A stretch of DNA of 42,130 nucleotides from a virus: the UHGV virus genome UHGV-0207969, one strand, 5' to 3'. Below the pieces are notes generated by a model that was not told the DNA's origin, ran no database searches, and saw only the letters and a list, made by a program, of their open reading frames with translations. The stretch's first letter is position 1. Every line of letters starts with the position of its first letter. The position numbers and the translations under genes were made by a program. Shown here one piece after another: positions 895-31,552 of this stretch.

Positions 895-1086
895 CTATTT
901 CGTCGGATTACCAACTGATTCACCATCTACTTTATAGCCTGTATCTTGCTCTGCTTGCTTTGTCCATTCCCAAACTTTGTCAGTGGAAACCCAATTTTGA
1001 TTCCATAGGATGAAGTAGAAAGCCAGTAGAAACTCATGTTGATTTAACCATTCTTGTGTAACTTCATGTGTGTCATTACCAGACAT
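895..1086 (-). CDS. hypothetical protein
   Basis: 63-aa ORF in the co-directional early gene array. RBS-like GGAGACGATATT lies upstream. Confidence 0.45.
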   Translation of the reverse strand: MSGNDTHEVTQEWLNQHEFLLAFYFILWNQNWVSTDKVWEWTKQAEQDTGYKVDGESVGNPTK

Positions 1087-1127
1087 AATATCGTCTCCTT
1101 TAGTTGGTTATTTTGGTGGATAGTGGA

Positions 1128-1352
1128 TTATCCAGTAATTTCAATTAATACATCTGACCACGCATCTACAACACGTTCAAATAGTTCATCCGTAAAGTTC
1201 ATATCACCATTTTCAAACACTAACTTATACCCTCCATCAATAGGGTGTGCTGTATAAGTTTCATCTTTTAAACAATGTCTTCCTTCAGATGAAAAAGATT
1301 CTAAACACAAAAATTTTCTCGTTGCATAGCTAATATGAATTGATTGATTCAT
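1128..1352 (-). CDS. hypothetical protein, paralog of 40724-41020
   Basis: Shares SFSSEGRHCL...IDGGYKLVFENGDMNFTDELFER with ORF 40724-41020 (FESEGRYCL...IDGGYKLVFENGEMNFTDNLFER). RBS AGGAGGAAAACAAA precedes the start. Confidence 0.55.
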   Translation of the reverse strand: MNQSIHISYATRKFLCLESFSSEGRHCLKDETYTAHPIDGGYKLVFENGDMNFTDELFERVVDAWSDVLIEITG

Positions 1353-1385
1353 TTTGTTTTCCTCCTAGTTGTGTATTTCTTCCGA

Positions 1386-1700
1386 TTACTGACTCAATAT
1401 CTCGACCGTTGCACCTGCAAAATTGCCTTTCTTCAAAGGTATCTGCAATCTGCATGCTCGATCCAAAGTCCATTTGTTCAGCCCTGACATCTCTGCGGCT
1501 TCACGCTGTGTGCTGAATTCTTTGACTTCACCGTCTGGAAAAGTAAATCTGACTGGCGTTGAGTTGTATCTATTCTGCTTTGGTCGATCGTAACTCTTTC
1601 CCCACAAAGCCTTTCTCAAAACTCTGATTTCGTCTTCATCAGCACCTGGCGTATTAACTAACTTTTCCAACCGATACAAATCTTCTTTATTAGCCATCAT
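1386..1700 (-). CDS. hypothetical protein, possible small DNA-binding protein
   Basis: 104-aa ORF. The C-terminal TQREAAEMSGLNKWTLDRACR looks HTH-like. Start is MMANKED or MANKED. Confidence 0.45.
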   Translation of the reverse strand: MMANKEDLYRLEKLVNTPGADEDEIRVLRKALWGKSYDRPKQNRYNSTPVRFTFPDGEVKEFSTQREAAEMSGLNKWTLDRACRLQIPLKKGNFAGATVEILSQ

Positions 1701-1805
1701 TCCACCCTCTTCATATTTCGCAATCTAACAACTGTCCGATCGCTGCCAAACGTCACAATAGCTGAGTTCTCAAGCACTTTGACACACACTGCTTTGAAAG
1801 GTGTT

Positions 1806-1931
1806 TTAAAACGTTCGGTCACGCACCAATACTCGATGCCTGCTTTTTACTCTACGTTGCTTTCTGACTACACGTGGCGGCGGGCTATACTTACCGTCTT
1901 GAACGCCTGTTACTGTGTCTGCTAGTTTCAT
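1806..1931 (-). CDS. small basic hypothetical protein (41 aa)
   Basis: Strong RBS AAGGAGAAATAAAGC before the ATG. Its start shares an ATGA overlap with the stop of the upstream small ORF. Below the 60-aa track cut-off. Confidence 0.3.
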   Translation of the reverse strand: MKLADTVTGVQDGKYSPPPRVVRKQRRVKSRHRVLVRDRTF

Positions 1932-2071
1932 GCTTTATTTCTCCTTTTGATTTCCGCAGCAATCCATTTCTCTCGCAGCTGCACTCGTCTACGCAAACTC
2001 TGAACGATTTTCTGTTGCACATCTAGCTCTTTATCTGATAGTTTGCGTATGCTTTCTTGTGTTGGTGTCAT
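1928..2071 (-). CDS. small hypothetical protein (47 aa)
   Basis: RBS AAGAGGTGAGCAG before the ATG. Translationally coupled (ATGA) to the next small ORF. Confidence 0.3.
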   Translation of the reverse strand: MTPTQESIRKLSDKELDVQQKIVQSLRRRVQLREKWIAAEIKRRNKA

Positions 2072-2082
2072 CTGCTCACCTC

Positions 2083-2232
2083 TTAATATTGATAGTGATT
2101 TTCCCAATAGAATACGGTGTAAAGCTCGCCACTACGTACGATCGCTTGTATATCACTTTGTTTTATTTTTTTGCTATTGATGAATTTAGTTAACGAGCTC
2201 GCCTTTGAAAATTTCGCCTGTTTCAATTCCAT
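2083..2232 (-). CDS. small hypothetical protein (49 aa)
   Basis: RBS GAGAGGTGAGCAGAT before the ATG at 2232. Sits 13 nt after the SSB stop. Confidence 0.3.
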   Translation of the reverse strand: MELKQAKFSKASSLTKFINSKKIKQSDIQAIVRSGELYTVFYWENHYQY

Positions 2233-2245
2233 ATCTGCTCACCTC

Positions 2246-2707
2246 TCAAAACGGAAGGCTATCATCGCTGATATCAATCGACGAGTTCCTAAATGGGTCT
2301 GATTGAACGTTGTTGCGGTTTTGTTGAGCGTTGGCATTATTAGTCGTTTGACTATTTAAAACGCCGCCATCTCGCGTATTTTGGCTCTTGCGACCAGTTG
2401 TGAAGCTAAACTTATCCGCCACAACTTCTGTAACATATTTTCTACCGCCTGAGTTATCTTCGTAGCTGCGTGTTTGGATTCTTCCGACAACTAGAATTTC
2501 GTCACCTTTTCTGAAGTAGTTCGCAACTGTTTCAGCAGTTTTCCCCCAGAACACAATGTTCACCCAATCTGTTTCTTTTTCGCCATTGGCGTTCTTATAA
2601 TCACGTTCCACAGCAATACTTGTTGTGCCCACTGCTTTACCACTTTGCGTATATTTAAGGTCAATGTCCTTGCCTAGTTTTCCTTGTAAAGTTACGTTGT
2701 TTATCAT
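2246..2707 (-). CDS. ssb: single-stranded DNA-binding protein
   Basis: N-terminal OB-fold pattern (MINNVTLQGKLGKD...WVNIVFWGK.AE). Gln/Asn-rich tail ends in the acidic DISDDSLPF, typical of SSB C-termini. Confidence 0.85.
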   Translation of the reverse strand: MINNVTLQGKLGKDIDLKYTQSGKAVGTTSIAVERDYKNANGEKETDWVNIVFWGKTAETVANYFRKGDEILVVGRIQTRSYEDNSGGRKYVTEVVADKFSFTTGRKSQNTRDGGVLNSQTTNNANAQQNRNNVQSDPFRNSSIDISDDSLPF

Positions 2708-5484: not shown

Positions 5485-6162
5485 TTATCCCCCAATCTTT
5501 AACTTCTTTATCTCGTCTTGATTCAATTTGATCCCGATAACGTGATACTTGTTCTTAAACTCTGTAATTCCTATTTGGTGCTTCTCGGTATGATGGGTTC
5601 TGCAAAGTGCTGCAAAAGTAAATTCTGTGTGATCTACTTCTTTCCGCTTTCGTCTTCCCAAGGCTTTGTCAAAGTGATCGATGTCACTGTTCTTTTTACC
5701 GCAAATGCAGCAGGTTCGATTCATCACACATTTATAGAAAAAGTACTGTTCATTTTGTGGCGGTATCTCATACCCTTCACGAAACGGAATGTCATTTGCG
5801 AAGATAAAATCTAGTATCAATTCATCTAATGTCGAAACTTCATCGACTGTGTTCTCCGATTGATTCGACAAGCTAATGTTCTTCCCTGTGAAGTATCTGA
5901 ATTGCCAATAGAACACGTCTTTAAGGCTCTCTAATGGTTCGCCAGTGTAAATGTATATGTCTTGCATTAAAGCGAATGTGAAGCGTCTCTGTTCGACTGT
6001 GAACCCGCGTGGGTCTTTGATGAATAATTCTGCTTGTCGCTCGCCGTCATATCCATCAAAGATTGTTTTGAGACGCGCGATATTTAGTTCATCTTTGAGT
6101 TCTAGCGTCAGGCGATTACCTTCAACTTTTATTATTTTTGCTAGATACGAAAGGTTGTTCAT
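5485..6162 (-). CDS. HNH-type nuclease domain protein
   Basis: C-terminal CCICGKKNSDIDHFDKALGRRKRKEVDHTEFTFAALCRTHHTEKH has the Cys/His spacing of an HNH or zinc-finger nuclease. Confidence 0.5.
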   Translation of the reverse strand: MNNLSYLAKIIKVEGNRLTLELKDELNIARLKTIFDGYDGERQAELFIKDPRGFTVEQRRFTFALMQDIYIYTGEPLESLKDVFYWQFRYFTGKNISLSNQSENTVDEVSTLDELILDFIFANDIPFREGYEIPPQNEQYFFYKCVMNRTCCICGKKNSDIDHFDKALGRRKRKEVDHTEFTFAALCRTHHTEKHQIGITEFKNKYHVIGIKLNQDEIKKLKIGG

Positions 6163-7098
6163 TTACAGCACTTCCACTTTTATTCCTTCACCAGTGATAA
6201 ACTTGTTTAATGCAGTTAGTTGTTCATGCGTTCCTGTTAGTCGCAATTCAACTGTTTTAAACTCTTCAATTTCTTGACGTTGCAAGTTTGGTGATTCCTC
6301 TAAAATTTCACCAGTTTCTTGATCGATTACATTATTCTCAACTTGTCGCTCTTTGAGTTCTTTCATAGCTTGCTCATATTCAGCTTGGGCTTGCTGATCT
6401 TTGAGTTCACGCTCTTCTCGTTCTCGTTTAGCAGCCACAGTTGCATCAATTTGCTTCATCAAGTCGGATGAGAATAATCCGTTTTCGATTTGCGCTACCC
6501 AAGATTCAGGTTCTAAACCTACCGCTTTTGCATAGTTGCCAATGATAGCTTTCTCGCTCTCAATACGTTTGTTAGCATCAGCAATTTGTTTCATTTGGAA
6601 AGTAACTTCTTCTAACGTTTTTTTGTTCAACTCGCCCTTAGTAGTGAAGTTACCCTTATTTAGCCATGATGGATTAATAGTTAATTCCGATGAATCGATT
6701 CCGTAGTTAGGAGAAATTTCTTCAATAGTTGAAACCAACTTATCCAGCCGTTTAGCTTTTTCCGACTCTTCAAAAGTAGAAATGCTCTCATTGATTCCCT
6801 CGCTGACTAACTTAATCTGATTCGTGTAACCATTGATTTTCGTTTCAAACTCTTTCAATGGTTTGCTGTATTCTTTCTTAACCGCTTTGCGTTGGTCGTC
6901 AAGCAACTTAGCAATTTTATTTAAATCCGCTTTAGCTTGCTTCGCTTCTGGAATATTGTCGTCAGTGAAAACCAATGTTCCATAACGAGCGATAGTCGCA
7001 TCCACCAACTCTTTCAGCTTGGTTTCGTTGTTGATCGTTATTTGGCTTGGCGTGAAATCTACGTTAAATTCAAGTTGAGTAGTTAAATCGTTTGTCAC
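6163..7098 (-). CDS. DUF1351-like protein (partner of phage single-strand annealing proteins)
   Basis: 311 aa, coiled-coil rich, directly downstream of the annealing protein as DUF1351 usually is. Assigned by size, context and composition, not a strict motif. Confidence 0.5.
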   Translation of the reverse strand: MTNDLTTQLEFNVDFTPSQITINNETKLKELVDATIARYGTLVFTDDNIPEAKQAKADLNKIAKLLDDQRKAVKKEYSKPLKEFETKINGYTNQIKLVSEGINESISTFEESEKAKRLDKLVSTIEEISPNYGIDSSELTINPSWLNKGNFTTKGELNKKTLEEVTFQMKQIADANKRIESEKAIIGNYAKAVGLEPESWVAQIENGLFSSDLMKQIDATVAAKREREERELKDQQAQAEYEQAMKELKERQVENNVIDQETGEILEESPNLQRQEIEEFKTVELRLTGTHEQLTALNKFITGEGIKVEVL

Positions 7099-27149: not shown

Positions 27150-27545
27150 TCAGGAGTTTACAAATCTCGGTACTTTTTCATCCTTGCCCAAGATTTTGTT
27201 TTCAAGTTTTTCCTTGTTAAAGAATTTTTCGAAGGTGTCAAATAAAGGAACCTCGTATTTACCACGTTTTTTAGTAGCTTTAACTTGATTATTCGCCCAA
27301 GCTTGATAATGAATAAGCTCTTGTTCGTCTAATCTTTTGAGACGATAAGCAATAAGCCTTGTTTCGTATTCCGTCATTGTCATTCGATCAATGTCTAAAA
27401 AGTCAGTAATCCCGAGATAACGCAGACAGTTTATCTGGACAGTGGCATAAAAATCTTCTTCTACTTGCTTTCCTTGATTCTGTTTTCGACTGTTAGTGTT
27501 TTTTTCTTTGTAAATTCCGACTTTTTTAATTCTTCTAGTACCAAA
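27150..27545 (-). CDS. tail assembly chaperone, -1 frame (T-like) part of a G/GT pair
   Basis: This frame is open from 27545 with no start codon and overlaps the end of gene 27461-27808. A run of seven A (forward T7 at 27499-27505) lies in the overlap. Confidence 0.55.
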   Translation of the reverse strand, partial: FGTRRIKKVGIYKEKNTNSRKQNQGKQVEEDFYATVQINCLRYLGITDFLDIDRMTMTEYETRLIAYRLKRLDEQELIHYQAWANNQVKATKKRGKYEVPLFDTFEKFFNKEKLENKILGKDEKVPRFVNS

Positions 27546-27808
27546 TCAAAGAGTTTGTCCGAGCCGATTTCACCAACTAGGGCAATCAAATCTTTTTCAG
27601 CTACTCGTGGTGACTCTGTTGCATTTGCTACTTTTAACATTTCAATCAAAGTCTCGATATCTTCGTTAAAGAAATTCACTAGCGTTGAATCTAAGCCAAG
27701 TTTCATTGTCATCCCTTGCTCTACAACGGAATATCTGCGGTTCATTTCACGGATAAACCCAAATCCAAAAATAAAGCTATACTCTTTGTCGTTAATCGTT
27801 AGTTCCAT
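27461..27808 (-). CDS. tail assembly chaperone (gpG-like)
   Basis: 115-aa acidic protein directly upstream of the tape measure gene. RBS AGGAGGATGAATAA. Confidence 0.6.
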   Translation of the reverse strand: MELTINDKEYSFIFGFGFIREMNRRYSVVEQGMTMKLGLDSTLVNFFNEDIETLIEMLKVANATESPRVAEKDLIALVGEIGSDKLFDLVLEELKKSEFTKKKTLTVENRIKESK

Positions 27809-29095: not shown

Positions 29096-29405
29096 CAGAA
29101 GCCACCTCCTGGACGATAATGCTATTTCTTAATGCCGGAGTTCTCGTGGTGACATCTTTATACGTTTTTCCTTCGTACAAAATGCGATCATACTCTGGAA
29201 CAACAAAAAGAGGCATGGTTCTGATAACCTTTGCCCCTTGTCGTATATCTCCAAAAATAGCCATACTCCTATCTGTTCCAACATCCGTCACGTTAACGTT
29301 TGCTGTCGTCCGAATAGGTGCCGAATCTACCCACTCGCCCAAGTCTGGATCGTAATGGCTACCTAATCCATCTTTCTCGAAAGTAACTTCATCTAAAAAT
29401 CTCAT
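29088..29405 (-). CDS. head closure / stopper protein
   Basis: 105 aa, by position (SPP1 gp16-like). Confidence 0.45.
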   Translation of the reverse strand: MRFLDEVTFEKDGLGSHYDPDLGEWVDSAPIRTTANVNVTDVGTDRSMAIFGDIRQGAKVIRTMPLFVVPEYDRILYEGKTYKDVTTRTPALRNSIIVQEVASGG

Positions 29406-29731
29406 ATGAAGTAAATCCCCCCTCGCTTGGGCTTGTATAAGTCTTCATCGTCTTTTCTTTTAAAGGAATCAATCTCCGATCCATATTCGGAAAAATCCGA
29501 ATCAGGAAATGCCATAGATAGTCCTTCTTGAGAGTATGAGGACATCCCTTCCTGTCCAACTCGGTTAAAACGTTTGTTGGTTACATCGAAAACAATGTAC
29601 TCTAATGAATCTGGAATAACAGAGACGCCTAGCAATGACGCTAAGCGCTCTCTAGTTCGTTTCTCGATAACTTCTAGCTTATCATCTGTAGAACCGCTTA
29701 GAAGCTTCTTAACGTCATCTTTAATTGCCAT
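29402..29731 (-). CDS. head-tail connector (gp15/gp6-like)
   Basis: 109 aa, the first gene after the capsid gene. Confidence 0.45.
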   Translation of the reverse strand: MAIKDDVKKLLSGSTDDKLEVIEKRTRERLASLLGVSVIPDSLEYIVFDVTNKRFNRVGQEGMSSYSQEGLSMAFPDSDFSEYGSEIDSFKRKDDEDLYKPKRGGIYFI

Positions 29732-29746
29732 TCGTATCTATCCTTC

Positions 29747-30057
29747 CTACGGTTCAGTCAGAGTCAAAACGTGAGTATCCGTATGTGATCCATCTTCCGT
29801 TTTGATTGTTGTCGTGTACTCGCCAGCAGGTACAGTTTCATTCCAAGTAATATTACCGCTAGAAGAAACCGCCAAACCAGTTGTTGCTGGTGCAATTGAA
29901 TATGTCACTGTTTTATTTGTTGCGTTTTGTGGCGCAACAGTGGCTGTTAATTGTCTATTACCGGCAGTCCCCGCAACTGCACTTGAAGTTTTAGGCGATA
30001 CTGTAACGCCTGTAACGGGGACTGTTACTCCCCCGCCGGTTGAATTTTCCCGAATGC
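29747..30057 (-). CDS. Big_2 (bacterial Ig-like) domain ORF with no start codon in the -1 frame of the capsid gene 3' end: putative frameshift extension of the major capsid protein
   Basis: Minus-strand translation gives VPVTGVTVSPKTSSAVAGTAGNRQLTATVAPQNATNKTVTYSIAPATTGLAVSSSGNITW...TEP then a stop. The frame opens about 10 codons before the capsid TAA. No ATG/GTG/TTG gives an ORF of 60 aa or more. Confidence 0.5.
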
Positions 30058-30951
30058 TTCATCTTTAACGATCATGAAACCAACATCCATTGTCGCACGC
30101 AAAGCAACTAATTCTTGCTCAAACAAGTTAACTGGCGTACCGTCTTCGTTTGTAAGAGTCGAAAGTTGAGCGTCTTCAGAAATTTTGAACGAGATATTGT
30201 ATGGGATTCCGTAGAACATATAGTTAAAGTCGCCTGCATACAACTCACCTTTTGCCAAAGCTTTCAAATCGACTACTGGCAACCCATCAATAGTGTTAGC
30301 CGCACGATCGTAAATGAATTCAACATTCGTGCCAACTGTTTGAGCTGCAGAGCGAAGTTCTGTACGGTTTTTGCGGTTCGAAATGAATGCATTTGGTTCA
30401 AATTCATTTTCACCCAAAGCATCTTCTAATGCCAAAATGTTGTCATAAGTCAAAGGGCCGTTGATAACATTAGCCGCTGCAACAACAGATTCTTCTAAAG
30501 ATTGTGGAAACGGATTGTCTGTATTCAACAAAGCAGCAGCATCAAATTTTTTGTAGAAAGCTTCCGCAATTTTTGGCTGCATCTTCTCAAAGAAATCTGA
30601 TAATTTATAATTTAAATATTCACGAGAAACCGGAAGAATGACACCGAGTTTTTTTGCAGTCATCGTAGCTTGCATCCATTTAGGTTTAGACGTTTTAATT
30701 TTTTCACCTTCACCAACCCAGTATGCGCCTGGACCTTCAGCAAAGTATTCGAATTTCTTTTCTTTGTCCGTCATTTCTTCATACTTGGCCAGCTGCATGA
30801 TCTTAGAGTTTTCCATGACTTCATTAACAATAAGCGTATTGTACTTGTCGGGGATCTTGCCTTCTTTTGTTTCGTAAACTGTCACATTATCTGGATTCCA
30901 AGTCTGAGCAAAGTATTGCAAATTCATATTCATTAATCGTTTGTTTTTCAT
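30025..30951 (-). CDS. major capsid protein
   Basis: 308 aa immediately after the scaffold gene. N-terminal MKNKRLMNMNLQYFAQ propeptide-like motif. RBS AGGAGGAAATACTAA. Confidence 0.8.
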   Translation of the reverse strand: MKNKRLMNMNLQYFAQTWNPDNVTVYETKEGKIPDKYNTLIVNEVMENSKIMQLAKYEEMTDKEKKFEYFAEGPGAYWVGEGEKIKTSKPKWMQATMTAKKLGVILPVSREYLNYKLSDFFEKMQPKIAEAFYKKFDAAALLNTDNPFPQSLEESVVAAANVINGPLTYDNILALEDALGENEFEPNAFISNRKNRTELRSAAQTVGTNVEFIYDRAANTIDGLPVVDLKALAKGELYAGDFNYMFYGIPYNISFKISEDAQLSTLTNEDGTPVNLFEQELVALRATMDVGFMIVKDEAFGKIQPAGE

Positions 30952-30964
30952 TTAGTATTTCCTC

Positions 30965-31552
30965 CTATTTAATGATTCTGTTTTTAGCAGCCAATTCAGC
31001 CACAGTTTGTTTAGTGTTCTTATCAGCAGAAAACTGTCCGCCTTCACCCGGCGTAGATTGACGAGCATTTTCTTTTTTGATCCGAGATGCAAAGTTAGTA
31101 ATAACTGCAACAGCCTTTTTAGTAGCTTCTGCATCTTCTGAGACAATCAATCCGAGTATTTCATCATCTTGTGGCAATCCTGCTCCTGAGAGCATTTTAG
31201 AAGCTTCTGACTTCATTTCGTTAATAGTCTGTCCACGTTTCAGTTCAGCGATTTCGGCTTCTTTTTGCTCCAATTCGTGTTGCAGTTTTTCTTCCGCATT
31301 CATTTTTGCGAGCTTCTTAGCTTCTTCTTTTTTCGCTTCTGCTTCTTGTTCCCAACTTGCACGAGCCTTTTTAGTTTCAGCAGCAACAATTTTTGCTAAT
31401 TCGTCACGAGAAAATGTTTTGCCAGTTTCTTCCTTCTTTGTTTCATCTGTGGTGGTTTCAGTTGTTTCAGTCGACGTCGTTTCTTGAGAACCGCCATCTT
31501 GTTCAGCAAAAAATTGAAGTTTCATAGGCATTAATAAACGTTTTTTCTTCAT
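30965..31552 (-). CDS. scaffolding protein
   Basis: 195 aa, highly charged coiled coil (AEAKKEEAKKLAKMNAEEKLQHELEQKEAEIAELK). N-terminal MKKKRLLMPMKLQFFAE. RBS GGAGGAATAATC. Confidence 0.75.
   Translation of the reverse strand: MKKKRLLMPMKLQFFAEQDGGSQETTSTETTETTTDETKKEETGKTFSRDELAKIVAAETKKARASWEQEAEAKKEEAKKLAKMNAEEKLQHELEQKEAEIAELKRGQTINEMKSEASKMLSGAGLPQDDEILGLIVSEDAEATKKAVAVITNFASRIKKENARQSTPGEGGQFSADKNTKQTVAELAAKNRIIK

Follow-up and report, generated by a model that had tools for sequence, protein, structure and literature searches.

A start-less Ig-like reading frame behind a phage major capsid gene, probably expressed by a programmed -1 ribosomal frameshift

Several phages produce a minor, C-terminally extended version of a major virion protein through a recoding event where its gene ends (3'). 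Examples are 10A/10B of T3, the capsid frameshifts of the Listeria phages A118 and A500 (-1) and PSA (+1), gp17.1* of SPP1 and the tail-tube proteins of lactococcal phages (PMC5009743). Ig-like extensions are frequent among these frameshifted structural proteins, and in Lactobacillus phage A2 the -1 frameshifting has been established experimentally (PMC5009743), which agrees with the statement of an earlier note on the DNA studied here, that Ig-like domains added in this way to capsid or tail proteins are known in other siphoviruses. Such domains have been proposed to move by non-homologous recombination, sometimes being rescued by frameshifting (Fraser et al. 2006/2007, as far as their proposal is outlined in PMC5009743).

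Phage A2 is the closest described system. Its major head protein (gp5A/gp5B) and its major tail protein (gp10A/gp10B) both have a longer form with an Ig-like domain at the C-terminus, made when ribosomes shift to the -1 frame shortly before the gene ends. In the A2 genome record, we have read the heptamer C_CCA_AAA at the ends of the capsid and tail genes; we take it to be the shift site of Garcia et al. 2004. The locus described here is found in a virus genome (UHGV-0207969), and by the window we mean the whole stretch of 42,130 nucleotides that was analysed. Its arrangement is the same as in A2: a shift site (in the window a candidate one), one more sense codon, a stop and a start-less Ig-like domain in the -1 frame. 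A single cassette is moreover shared by capsid and tail genes, in A2 as in the phages studied here. On the other hand, the window has G_GGG_GAG UAA, which is non-canonical and precedes a different Ig-like domain, where A2 has C_CCA_AAA; A2 has been proved at the protein level, whereas the frameshift of the window is predicted from sequence. The A2 capsid is absent among the listed homologues of the window capsid. The A2 junction, C_CCA_AAA GCG TAA CGCCTG, is found verbatim at about 40 capsid gene ends in the capsid family of the window.

Other systems are more distant. The shift sites and directions of the T3, Listeria, SPP1 and lactococcal systems are unlike those of the window; the A118 and A500 records have a short HeH/LEM ORF after cps and an Ig-like ORF after the tail gene. 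Protein gp8 of phi29, with an HK97 fold and a BIG2 domain, carries this domain in the same C-terminal position, but there it is in frame and present on every subunit, while in the window only shifted products would have it. We have rejected the phiEf11 structural-protein paper as a precedent: it only proposes that a different gene is extended by 21 aa at an A7 run, which is unconfirmed. Adding a domain by frameshift is a known phage trick; the G-rich slip site is unusual.

All the features given below are on the minus strand. The zero-frame gene (30025-30951, stop TAA at 30025-30027) codes for 308 amino acids and matches PF05065 with 123 bits, above the Pfam threshold. The capsid of phage 80alpha, whose structure has been solved (6B0X/6B23), is 55% identical to it (E=4e-101), and an identical capsid protein is annotated in Enterococcus casseliflavus. 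Directly upstream is the scaffolding protein gene (30965-31552, PF14265 DUF4355). Judging by Pfam, the homology with 80alpha and the position after the scaffold gene, this is an HK97-fold major capsid protein; it belongs to a widespread group of Enterococcus prophages (E. casseliflavus, E. faecium, E. gallinarum and E. avium). The protein ends in ...FGKIQPAGE*, coded by gca ttc ggg aaa att caa ccg gcg ggg gag TAA. The next gene, for a gp6-like head-tail connector (29402-29731, PF05135), has a proper Shine-Dalgarno (SD) sequence and its ATG at 29731. In fact, all genuine genes of the operon have GGAGG and an ATG or GTG.

At the end of the capsid gene, the -1 frame is open from 30058, just past a TGA at 30059-30061, until a TAG at 29747-29749. 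The description in the earlier note is accurate in this respect: the frame opens some ten codons before the capsid stop, the TGA setting its start, it has about 95 residues (94 codons past the G-run, 29750-30031), and it ends 15 nt before the connector ATG. This trans-frame extension would consist of a GVTVPVTG linker followed by a Big_2-type Ig-like domain, roughly at 29756-30010. We have also found, as the note maintained, that there is no start for a stand-alone protein of at least 60 aa, since no ATG, GTG or TTG comes before the GTG at 29908, and from there only 53 aa remain. None of these three codons is found ahead of the domain midpoint, either in the window or in about 58 relatives. 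A start at SD spacing (ATG, GTG, TTG or a known weak codon, at 4-13 nt) is also absent from the window, which has GTC, CCC and GTT there instead. Two candidate starts have been discarded. The GTG at 29908, which begins the ORF of 53 aa listed by ORF finders (29747-29908), lies in the middle of the Ig domain, which it would split, and has no SD upstream. The ATT at 30053-30055, the NCBI choice for P0121 and P0230, has no SD either and is inside the capsid gene; it is missing from two relatives with other upstream genes (EG-TP1 and L175), and in the L030 group its equivalent is separated from the domain by a TGA.

The earlier note considered the translated frame a textbook Big_2 domain and called for an HMM search. 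In Pfam, He_PIG scores 23.3 bits (cut-off 24) and Big_2 (PF02368) 20.5 bits (cut-off 22.8): the E-values are significant, though both scores are just below the curated cut-offs. Several close homologues have precomputed PF02368 or PF05345 matches. The textbook character is thus not found in the sequence score, which is under the gathering threshold, but it does appear in the fold. The AF2 model of the domain has nine strands and a pLDDT of 96; Foldseek matches it to a solved Big_2 domain (7quz, TM 0.81, 40% identity, E=4e-7), and also to the BIG2 domain of phi29 gp8 (TM about 0.75), T5 pb6 and the C-terminal domain of lambda gpV. By this model and its matches, the extension does have a Big_2-type Ig-like fold. 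Searching with the domain by tblastn, we have matched 455 phage records. By analogy with what has been proposed for phage Ig-like domains, its function is probably a weak binding of cell-surface or mucosal carbohydrates.

The -1 ORF is intact, with no internal stops, in about 60 independent loci, and its relation to the upstream gene is always -1, with overlaps of 4-12 codons. Compared with EG-TP1, its dN/dS is 0.18 (dS 0.77), and 0.13 compared with the L041 group; the other two frames of the same region give 0.83 and 3.4. As far as substitution patterns can tell, purifying selection acts on this ORF, which evolves like a protein-coding sequence. With these values (0.13-0.18) and intact frames in all these loci, the comparison indicates that it is translated, and conservation of the start-less frame goes far beyond chance.

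The junction is also shared by unrelated genes. We have found GCG GGG GAG followed by the domain behind three of them: the HK97-type capsid, an XkdG-like capsid (EG-TP1) and a tail tube (L175), and the homology among the three contexts starts exactly at GCG. In the capsid family of the window, about 40 loci end with C_CCA_AAA GCG TAA and continue with a different Ig-like -1 ORF; this heptamer is retained while the preceding codon varies (tcC, agC or cgC). Other relatives need no recoding. In those at 65% identity, the capsid reads on in frame, from the same point, into a C-terminal beta-sandwich domain; the in-frame fusions P0021-P0118 have about 398 aa, with PF05065 and PF18316 SbsC_C. Another capsid (L185, PF25209) carries a homologous Big_2 domain in frame. 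In L198 (also P0236; reads SRR27110464), a run of six G, as the sequence stands, encodes exactly ...PAG-GVT..., a protein of 401 aa which is the predicted fusion. In all these in-frame proteins (the PF18316 fusions, L185 and L198/P0236) the domain is joined at the same residue as in the window, after ...MIVKDxAFxK(I/L)(Q/E)P; they differ from it in doing so without recoding, and PF18316 is another beta-sandwich family. A single capsid family presents four solutions, no domain, an in-frame domain, an A2-type heptamer and a G-run site, which makes it convenient for asking why partial decoration is selected.

A shift would have to lie within 12 nt, CCG GCG GGG GAG (30028-30039, G5 run at 30030-30034, GGG codon at 30031-30033), because in L030, L041-45 and other loci the -1 frame opens only four codons ahead of the capsid stop. 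We propose G_GGG_(G/A)AG as the candidate -1 slip site. Over about 60 loci the junction is invariant or varies conservatively: in five of them it is GTG GGG AAG, with four G, and both G_GGG and the arrangement are retained. The earlier note had suggested that G-runs in the capsid tail could support the slip. This applies to CCG GCG GGG GAG and not to the upstream ggg aaa, which we have rejected: G_GGA_AAA is out of the zero frame, and judging by the L030 group only the last four codons are left for the shift. An RF2-like +1 shift was discarded as well, as the +1 frame closes after 11 codons. No canonical X_XXY_YYZ heptamer is present in the overlap, which only has the tetramer G_GGG or the near-cognate G_GGG_GAG/G_GGG_AAG. 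The tetramer G_GG.G is not shift-prone in E. coli, where the signal has been ascribed to SD-like initiation (PMC4066793). Nevertheless, GGG may act as a slipping A-site codon, because A_AA.G_GG.G/A heptamers promote high-level shifting in E. coli. A pattern scan of contigs only gave two chance matches (L009, L010).

A stem-loop is predicted in the mRNA (29965-30024). It follows the UAA directly, so that 6 nt separate it from the GGG codon; structures that stimulate -1 frameshifting are expected about 5-9 nt 3' of the shift site. The outer stem has 10 bp, CAGUCCCCGU (30015-30024) with GCGGGGACUG (29965-29974), and the inner hairpin is AGGCG/CGCCU (30007-30011 with 29993-29997). The structure has an MFE of -25.6 kcal/mol (z=-2.8), and it is obtained again as the centroid of a 156-nt context. 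Its core is present in all variants, as well as in the EG-TP1 and L175 contexts. Pairing is kept in 92.5% of cells, versus 34-56% when the stem is slid, with one compensatory pair only, and 60 of 500 shuffles match the observed stem score. Covariation support was not obtained for this stem, as the sequences are too similar and the stem nearly invariant. Synonymous sites are less variable within the stem-loop region; conservation of the stem could come from coding constraints or from a recent spread of the cassette. No known frameshift element was found in Rfam, the sole match being a chance one (HOTAIR_2), far below threshold.

We consider it likely, on these comparisons, that a programmed -1 ribosomal frameshift adds the Ig-like domain to some of the capsid subunits. 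Most ribosomes would stop at the UAA and give the 308-aa capsid protein (predicted mass 34.9 kDa), while a fraction would slip back one nucleotide inside CCG GCG GGG GAG, aided by the G/C-rich 10-bp stem-loop right after the UAA. The likeliest event would be that tRNA-Gly on GGG re-pairs with the overlapping GGG (G_GGG); possibly in tandem, tRNA-Glu (tRNA-Lys in the AAG variant) would re-pair near-cognately on GGA or GAA. The predicted junction peptide is IQPAGGVTVPVTGVTVSPK if the slip takes place with GGG before GAG is decoded, and IQPAGEVTVPVTGVTVSPK if it is a tandem slip or a P-site slip after GAG. Shifted ribosomes would read 94 further codons, producing a capsid protein of 401 aa (44.2 kDa) in which a short linker leads to a Big_2-type domain at the C-terminus. 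Only some of the capsid subunits would carry the domain, on their outer side, as with gp5A/gp5B in A2. The earlier note's proposal of a frameshifted, decorated capsid is in this way supported by selection, by the shared junction, by the A2-type sister cassette and by the in-frame fusions, and the checks it asked for that can be made by computation have turned out in its favour. Programmed frameshifting is well supported here, but the ribosomal slip is an inferred route of expression; the codon at which it would take place, what the stem would contribute, how often a slip would occur and what the domain would do are inferred as well.

The domain might instead be a separate small protein, with GGGGGAG acting as SD and ribosomes initiating, or re-initiating once they have stopped at the UAA, at a near-cognate codon of the -1 frame nearby downstream. 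GGGGGAG is able to pair with the anti-SD, and in E. coli the signal of G_GG.G constructs was ascribed to initiation at an AUA 7 nt downstream (PMC4066793). A weak ATC codon is found at spacing 5 in 40 related loci, and a GTG at spacing 11 in EG-TP1; in NCBI records, Ig domain-containing proteins have been annotated as stand-alone genes that start at such codons, and there are genuine stand-alone proteins with a homologous domain, which have about 155 aa and an extra N-terminal domain. However, the window reads ACA GTC CCC GTT/GCT ACA GGC GTT in the -1 frame after the G-run, as do 18 other loci, and neither a start nor a known near-cognate start is found in these 20 nt. The annotated ATT, ATC and GTG starts are at different positions and are not conserved, the ATT of the L030 group being upstream of an in-frame TGA. 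It is not evident how a bare Ig domain of 94 aa would attach to the virion. The cassette of the sister phages is the frameshift site of A2, and the lineage with six G fuses both frames. We therefore find a separate protein unlikely.

We give still less credit to transcriptional slippage, in which RNA polymerase would insert an extra G at the G5 run in a minority of mRNAs. The product would be identical (…PAG-GVT…), the homopolymer is exactly at the junction, and the genome with six G (L198) indicates that the state with one more G is viable. Nevertheless, known cases of such slippage in bacteria and phages involve longer runs, mostly of A or T (PMC5009743), and the five loci with only G4 (GTG GGG AAG) keep the arrangement; the C_CCA_AAA sister cassette and a 3' stem-loop are typical of ribosomal, not polymerase, slippage. 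Least credible of all is an unexpressed remnant, a former in-frame fusion with six G which has lost one and is decaying, or an assembly or sequencing error. In-frame versions are known (L198, P0212) and homopolymers are prone to error, but about 60 independent contigs have G5 or G4; they come from different samples and lineages, and three gene contexts are represented. A sequencing error, a possibility which the earlier note had raised for the frame break, is excluded by these runs, as G5 is invariant in independent contigs with synonymous differences in their flanks. The absence of internal stops anywhere, with dN/dS of 0.13-0.18 up to a dS of 0.77, effectively refutes a remnant as far as such comparisons go.

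The domain family of the window appears in frame, out of frame and stand-alone, and on both capsid and tail proteins, which fits the proposal of mobile Ig-like domains. There is a difference with the mobile domains of Fraser et al.: here the recoding signal, GCG GGG GAG plus the stem, appears to travel with the domain, which suggests the transfer of a ready-made cassette rather than a de novo rescue at each insertion. More tentatively, at somewhat less than even chances, GCG GGG GAG, a space of about 6 nt and a UCCCCG/CGGGGA stem-loop would form a portable recoding cassette that Enterococcus phages exchange, with the Big_2 domain attached, between their capsid genes and their tail-tube genes. 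[quoted passage not shown] If so, this would be a second counterpart of the C_CCA_AAA cassette of A2, mechanistically distinct, and a Firmicute-specific -1 motif; the present rules for slippery sites of -1 shifts in bacteria, mostly based on E. coli, would be widened if G_GGG_RAG does shift in Enterococcus.

The domain is easily missed. Ig-like domains are candidate carbohydrate or mucus adhesins, relevant to gut phages, phage display and engineering. Gene callers leave the stretch of about 290 nt empty, or else they place a "putative Ig domain-containing protein" there with an invented ATT, ATC or GTG start, so that the Enterococcus prophage capsid is mis-annotated and a domain predicted to be exposed on the surface is overlooked. 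The earlier note was right that ORF finders would not see it: the two public contigs with the exact capsid have a gap of 293 nt there, empty of called genes. Some databases list the 53-aa ORF that starts at the internal GTG as a "hypothetical protein" (P0207, P0224).

On the minus strand of the window, a DUF4355 scaffold gene (30965..31552) is followed by the gene for an HK97-type major capsid protein of 308 amino acids (30025..30951; PF05065, 123 bits) and by a gp6-like head-tail connector gene (29402..29731). Between the capsid and connector genes there is a stretch of 293 nt without a conventional gene. The capsid gene ends in ...gca ttc ggg aaa att caa CCG GCG GGG GAG TAA. The -1 frame opens past a TGA, 10 codons 5' of this stop, and stays open until a TAG at 29747-29749, 15 nt from the connector ATG. 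Its earliest ATG, GTG or TTG is a GTG at 29908, which leaves only 53 amino acids. An earlier note had proposed that a -1 frameshift adds an Ig-like domain to the capsid; these limits bear out everything it stated about the frame opening, the 15 nt gap and the lack of a usable start. Each genuine gene of the operon starts at an ATG or GTG preceded by a GGAGG-like site.

The locus belongs to an unpublished prophage of the Enterococcus casseliflavus type. The exact capsid protein is WP_416230313.1, and the window covers almost all of Logan contig SRR8652849_71. The closest deposited phage is vB_ElaS_B1578 (PQ283533.1), with 80% nucleotide identity across the scaffold and capsid genes. Acinetobacter phage D2SVT (PQ554527.1) matches this region and the capsid protein with the same scores, identities and coverage as B1578. 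A phage recorded with Acinetobacter baumannii as its host thus has a structural module of the Enterococcus type, and the host given in one of the two records looks doubtful.

In IMG/VR, searches by pattern and by protein found an identical frame break in about 60 independent loci of this capsid family. At the 3' end, their capsid genes have synonymous differences from the window and a constant G-run. Among them, no canonical start is found 5' of the domain midpoint, except for a TTG deep within one capsid gene (L025). The dN/dS of the -1 ORF is 0.18 against Enterococcus phage EG-TP1 (dS 0.77) and about 0.13 against the group of locus L041 (dS 0.35); the other two frames of the same DNA give 0.83 and 3.4, and contain stops. 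Judged from these comparisons, the -1 ORF evolves as a protein. A decaying remnant or a sequencing error, the latter raised in the earlier note, is excluded: the break is common to about 60 independent loci, with a constant G-run amid synonymous differences, and the dN/dS is protein-like. In one locus (L077, IMGVR_UViG_2558860768_000002) CAA stands in place of the capsid TAA, which lengthens the zero frame by six codons (…GEQQSPL*); neither the G-run nor the -1 ORF differs.

Initiation of a separate Ig protein, with the G-run as its Shine-Dalgarno (SD) sequence, could contribute in the 40 loci which have an ATC at spacing 5. As a mechanism shared by all loci it is ruled out: past GGGGGAG, the window and 18 further loci read ACA GTC CCC GTT/GCT ACA GGC GTT in the -1 frame, and the publicly annotated ATT, ATC and GTG starts are at differing, non-conserved positions. 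Transcriptional slippage at the G-run is unlikely with only five G, and less likely still with the four G of the AAG variant described below. We consider -1 ribosomal frameshifting the probable route by which the Ig domain is expressed, as far as the sequences can tell. The ribosome would slip on G_GGG, where tRNA-Gly would re-pair perfectly, possibly in tandem with near-cognate re-pairing of tRNA-Glu from GAG to GGA, or of tRNA-Lys from AAG to GAA; a 3' stem-loop would stimulate the slip. The predicted products are a 44.2-kDa capsid-Ig fusion alongside the 34.9-kDa capsid protein. The weak point of this mechanism is the site itself, G_GGG_RAG, which is not a canonical heptamer. By analogy with Bacillus, Enterococcus may read GGG with a different tRNA-Gly set. 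In a systematic study in E. coli, G_GG.G is outside the shift-prone tetramers, and its above-background signal was ascribed to the G-run acting as Shine-Dalgarno for a nearby AUA (PMC4066793). The same study found high-level shifting at A_AA.G_GG.G/A, so GGG is capable of slipping as an A-site codon.

In public Enterococcus annotations, the -1 ORF is given an ATT start (proteins P0121, P0230, P0231 and P0233), an ATC (P0123) or a GTG (P0128), or appears as a 53 amino acid GTG fragment (P0207/P0224). These inconsistent, partly non-canonical starts are a systematic annotation artefact of the cassette.

The position of the proposed shift can be narrowed down. In L030, L041-45 and other loci, the -1 frame opens just four codons 5' of the capsid stop (TGA ACC GGC GGG GGA GTA), therefore any frame change must fall within CCG GCG GGG GAG. 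Five loci have a variant junction, CCA GTG GGG AAG TAA, thus the constant element is G_GGG followed by RAG. The upstream ggg aaa, suggested earlier as a slip site, was rejected: it is in the wrong register and lies beyond these 12 nt.

Directly 3' of the UAA, CAGUCCCCGU is predicted to pair with GCGGGGACUG, about 40 nt downstream, with a small AGGCG/CGCCU hairpin inside. The stem starts 6 nt past the GGG codon. The 80-nt segment folds with -25.6 kcal/mol (z = -2.8), and the stem is also the centroid within a 156-nt context. Its UCCCCG/CGGGGA core is present in all variants, and also in the contexts of EG-TP1 and of L175, a tail tube locus, where the stem is lengthened inward to 12 bp (z = -4.3). 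Cells of the stem are paired in 92.5%, against 34–56% in slid controls. Six of the ten outer pairs are invariant and there is one compensatory change, so covariation is no proof of the stem. Third codon positions are variable in 11 of the first 28 codons of the extension against 44 of the other 66 (p ~0.02, for sequences that are not independent), which fits an overlapping constraint. A search of this region in Rfam found no matching family.

The domain was claimed to be a textbook Big_2. Pfam scores for the translated -1 frame are significant, slightly under the curated thresholds: 23.3 bits for He_PIG (cut-off 24) and 20.5 bits for Big_2 (cut-off 22.8). An AlphaFold2 model based on 36 homologues is very confident, with nine strands and a pLDDT of 96. 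Its best Foldseek superposition is a solved Big_2 domain (7quz, TM 0.81, 40% identity); further matches are the BIG2 domain at the C-terminus of the phi29 capsid protein and Ig-like domains in T5 pb6 and lambda gpV. On this modelling the assignment as an Ig-like fold is sound, and Pfam membership by score is narrowly missed. A tblastn search with the domain matched 455 phage records, mostly C-terminal ends of major tail proteins or entries named 'structural protein with Ig domain'.

Matching junctions with a homologous domain are found behind three unrelated genes: the HK97-type capsid of the window (ccg GCG GGG GAG TAA CAGTCCCCG), the XkdG-like capsid of EG-TP1 (phrog_1623; aca GCG GGG GAG TAA CTGTCCCCG) and the tail tube protein of L175 (PF04630, phrog_88; acg GCG GGG GAG GCA TAA TCCCCG). 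Similarity starts precisely at GCG, and the sequences 5' of it are unrelated. In L175 (IMGVR_UViG_2558860915_000002, ~1217..2110) the Ig domain is also in the -1 frame without a start, and the stop comes one codon later, so a stop straight after GAG is not needed. This is an indication that shift site, stem and domain move together as a single cassette. The chances that it is a portable, non-canonical shift cassette active in Firmicutes are roughly even.

The domain also has in-frame equivalents, joined at the same point. Hundreds of homologues of about 398 amino acids (65% identity) have a PF18316 beta-sandwich domain directly past ...MIVKDxAFxKLE, and a PF25209 capsid (L185) has a homologous Big_2 domain in frame. 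In L198 (Logan SRR27110464_49, 1501..2706), whose capsid is 14% diverged (86% nucleotide identity), the run has six G instead of five. Its single ORF of 401 amino acids (P0236), ...KIQPAG-GVTIPATG..., is exactly what such a slip at GGG is predicted to produce. L198 may be a constitutive fusion that occurs naturally or, as it is a single assembly, the result of a homopolymer error. A third deployment is found in genuine stand-alone proteins of about 155 amino acids (P0124-P0206; gp14 of Enterococcus phage IME197, L115 3279..3737), where the domain is C-terminal to an FN3-like one. Phages of Enterococcus and of Bacillaceae encode them directly downstream of the tail tube gene.

Well-documented cases of -1 or +1 frameshifting that adds an Ig-like C-terminal extension to a capsid or tail protein include T3, A2, A118/A500, PSA and SPP1 (PMC5009743). 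Fraser and colleagues (cited in PMC5009743) proposed that these domains move from protein to protein and between frames. The window locus is probably another case of this class. It goes beyond the known cases in its non-canonical G-rich site and in the apparent joint travel of site, stem and domain. We found no literature report of capsid frameshifting in a phage of Enterococcus; the paper on phiEf11 has just a proposed, unconfirmed extension of 21 amino acids in a different gene.

The window's capsid family has a second type of junction: about 40 loci end in [tc/ag/cg]C CCA AAA GCG TA(A/G) CGCCTGCTACC, and the Ig-like -1 ORF behind it is a different one. They retain the heptamer although the codon giving its first C switches between Ser and Arg codons, and the GTG used as a start by annotators is absent from a subset. 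Lactobacillus phage A2 has the same sequence (acC CCA AAA GCG TAA CGCCTG) at the end of its major head gene, and gcC CCA AAA GCG TAG at the end of its major tail gene; according to the genome record, both genes precede Ig-like -1 ORFs. Frameshifting to -1 has been demonstrated in both genes (Garcia et al. 2004, Rodriguez et al. 2005, as cited in PMC5009743). The C_CCA_AAA cassette of B1578 has a strong stem-loop at the equivalent position (-26.4 kcal/mol, z = -4.4). Its 'hypothetical protein' gp7, with a GTG start (L001 4560..4869, record 6160..6469), is the -1 frame Ig-like extension after tcC CCA AAA GCG TAA, and its annotation as a gene of its own is probably wrong. In L147 (IMGVR_UViG_3300045988_033532, ~1080..1640) a tail tube gene (phrog_820) ends in agC CCA AAA GCG TAG, with the A2-type heptamer. 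Its -1 frame adds only 25 amino acids, which may be a remnant or may be functional in spite of their small number. Next comes a separate FN3+Ig gene, for about 155 amino acids.

The window also contains a tail assembly chaperone pair (27150..27808, minus strand) with the usual G/GT arrangement. An ORF of 115 amino acids (27461..27808), with an A7 run at 27499..27505, is overlapped by a -1 frame reaching 27150 beyond ACA AAG AAA AAA ACA. The 77 amino acid 'ORF' at 27150..27383 lacks an SD and is therefore probably a frameshift extension, not a separate gene.
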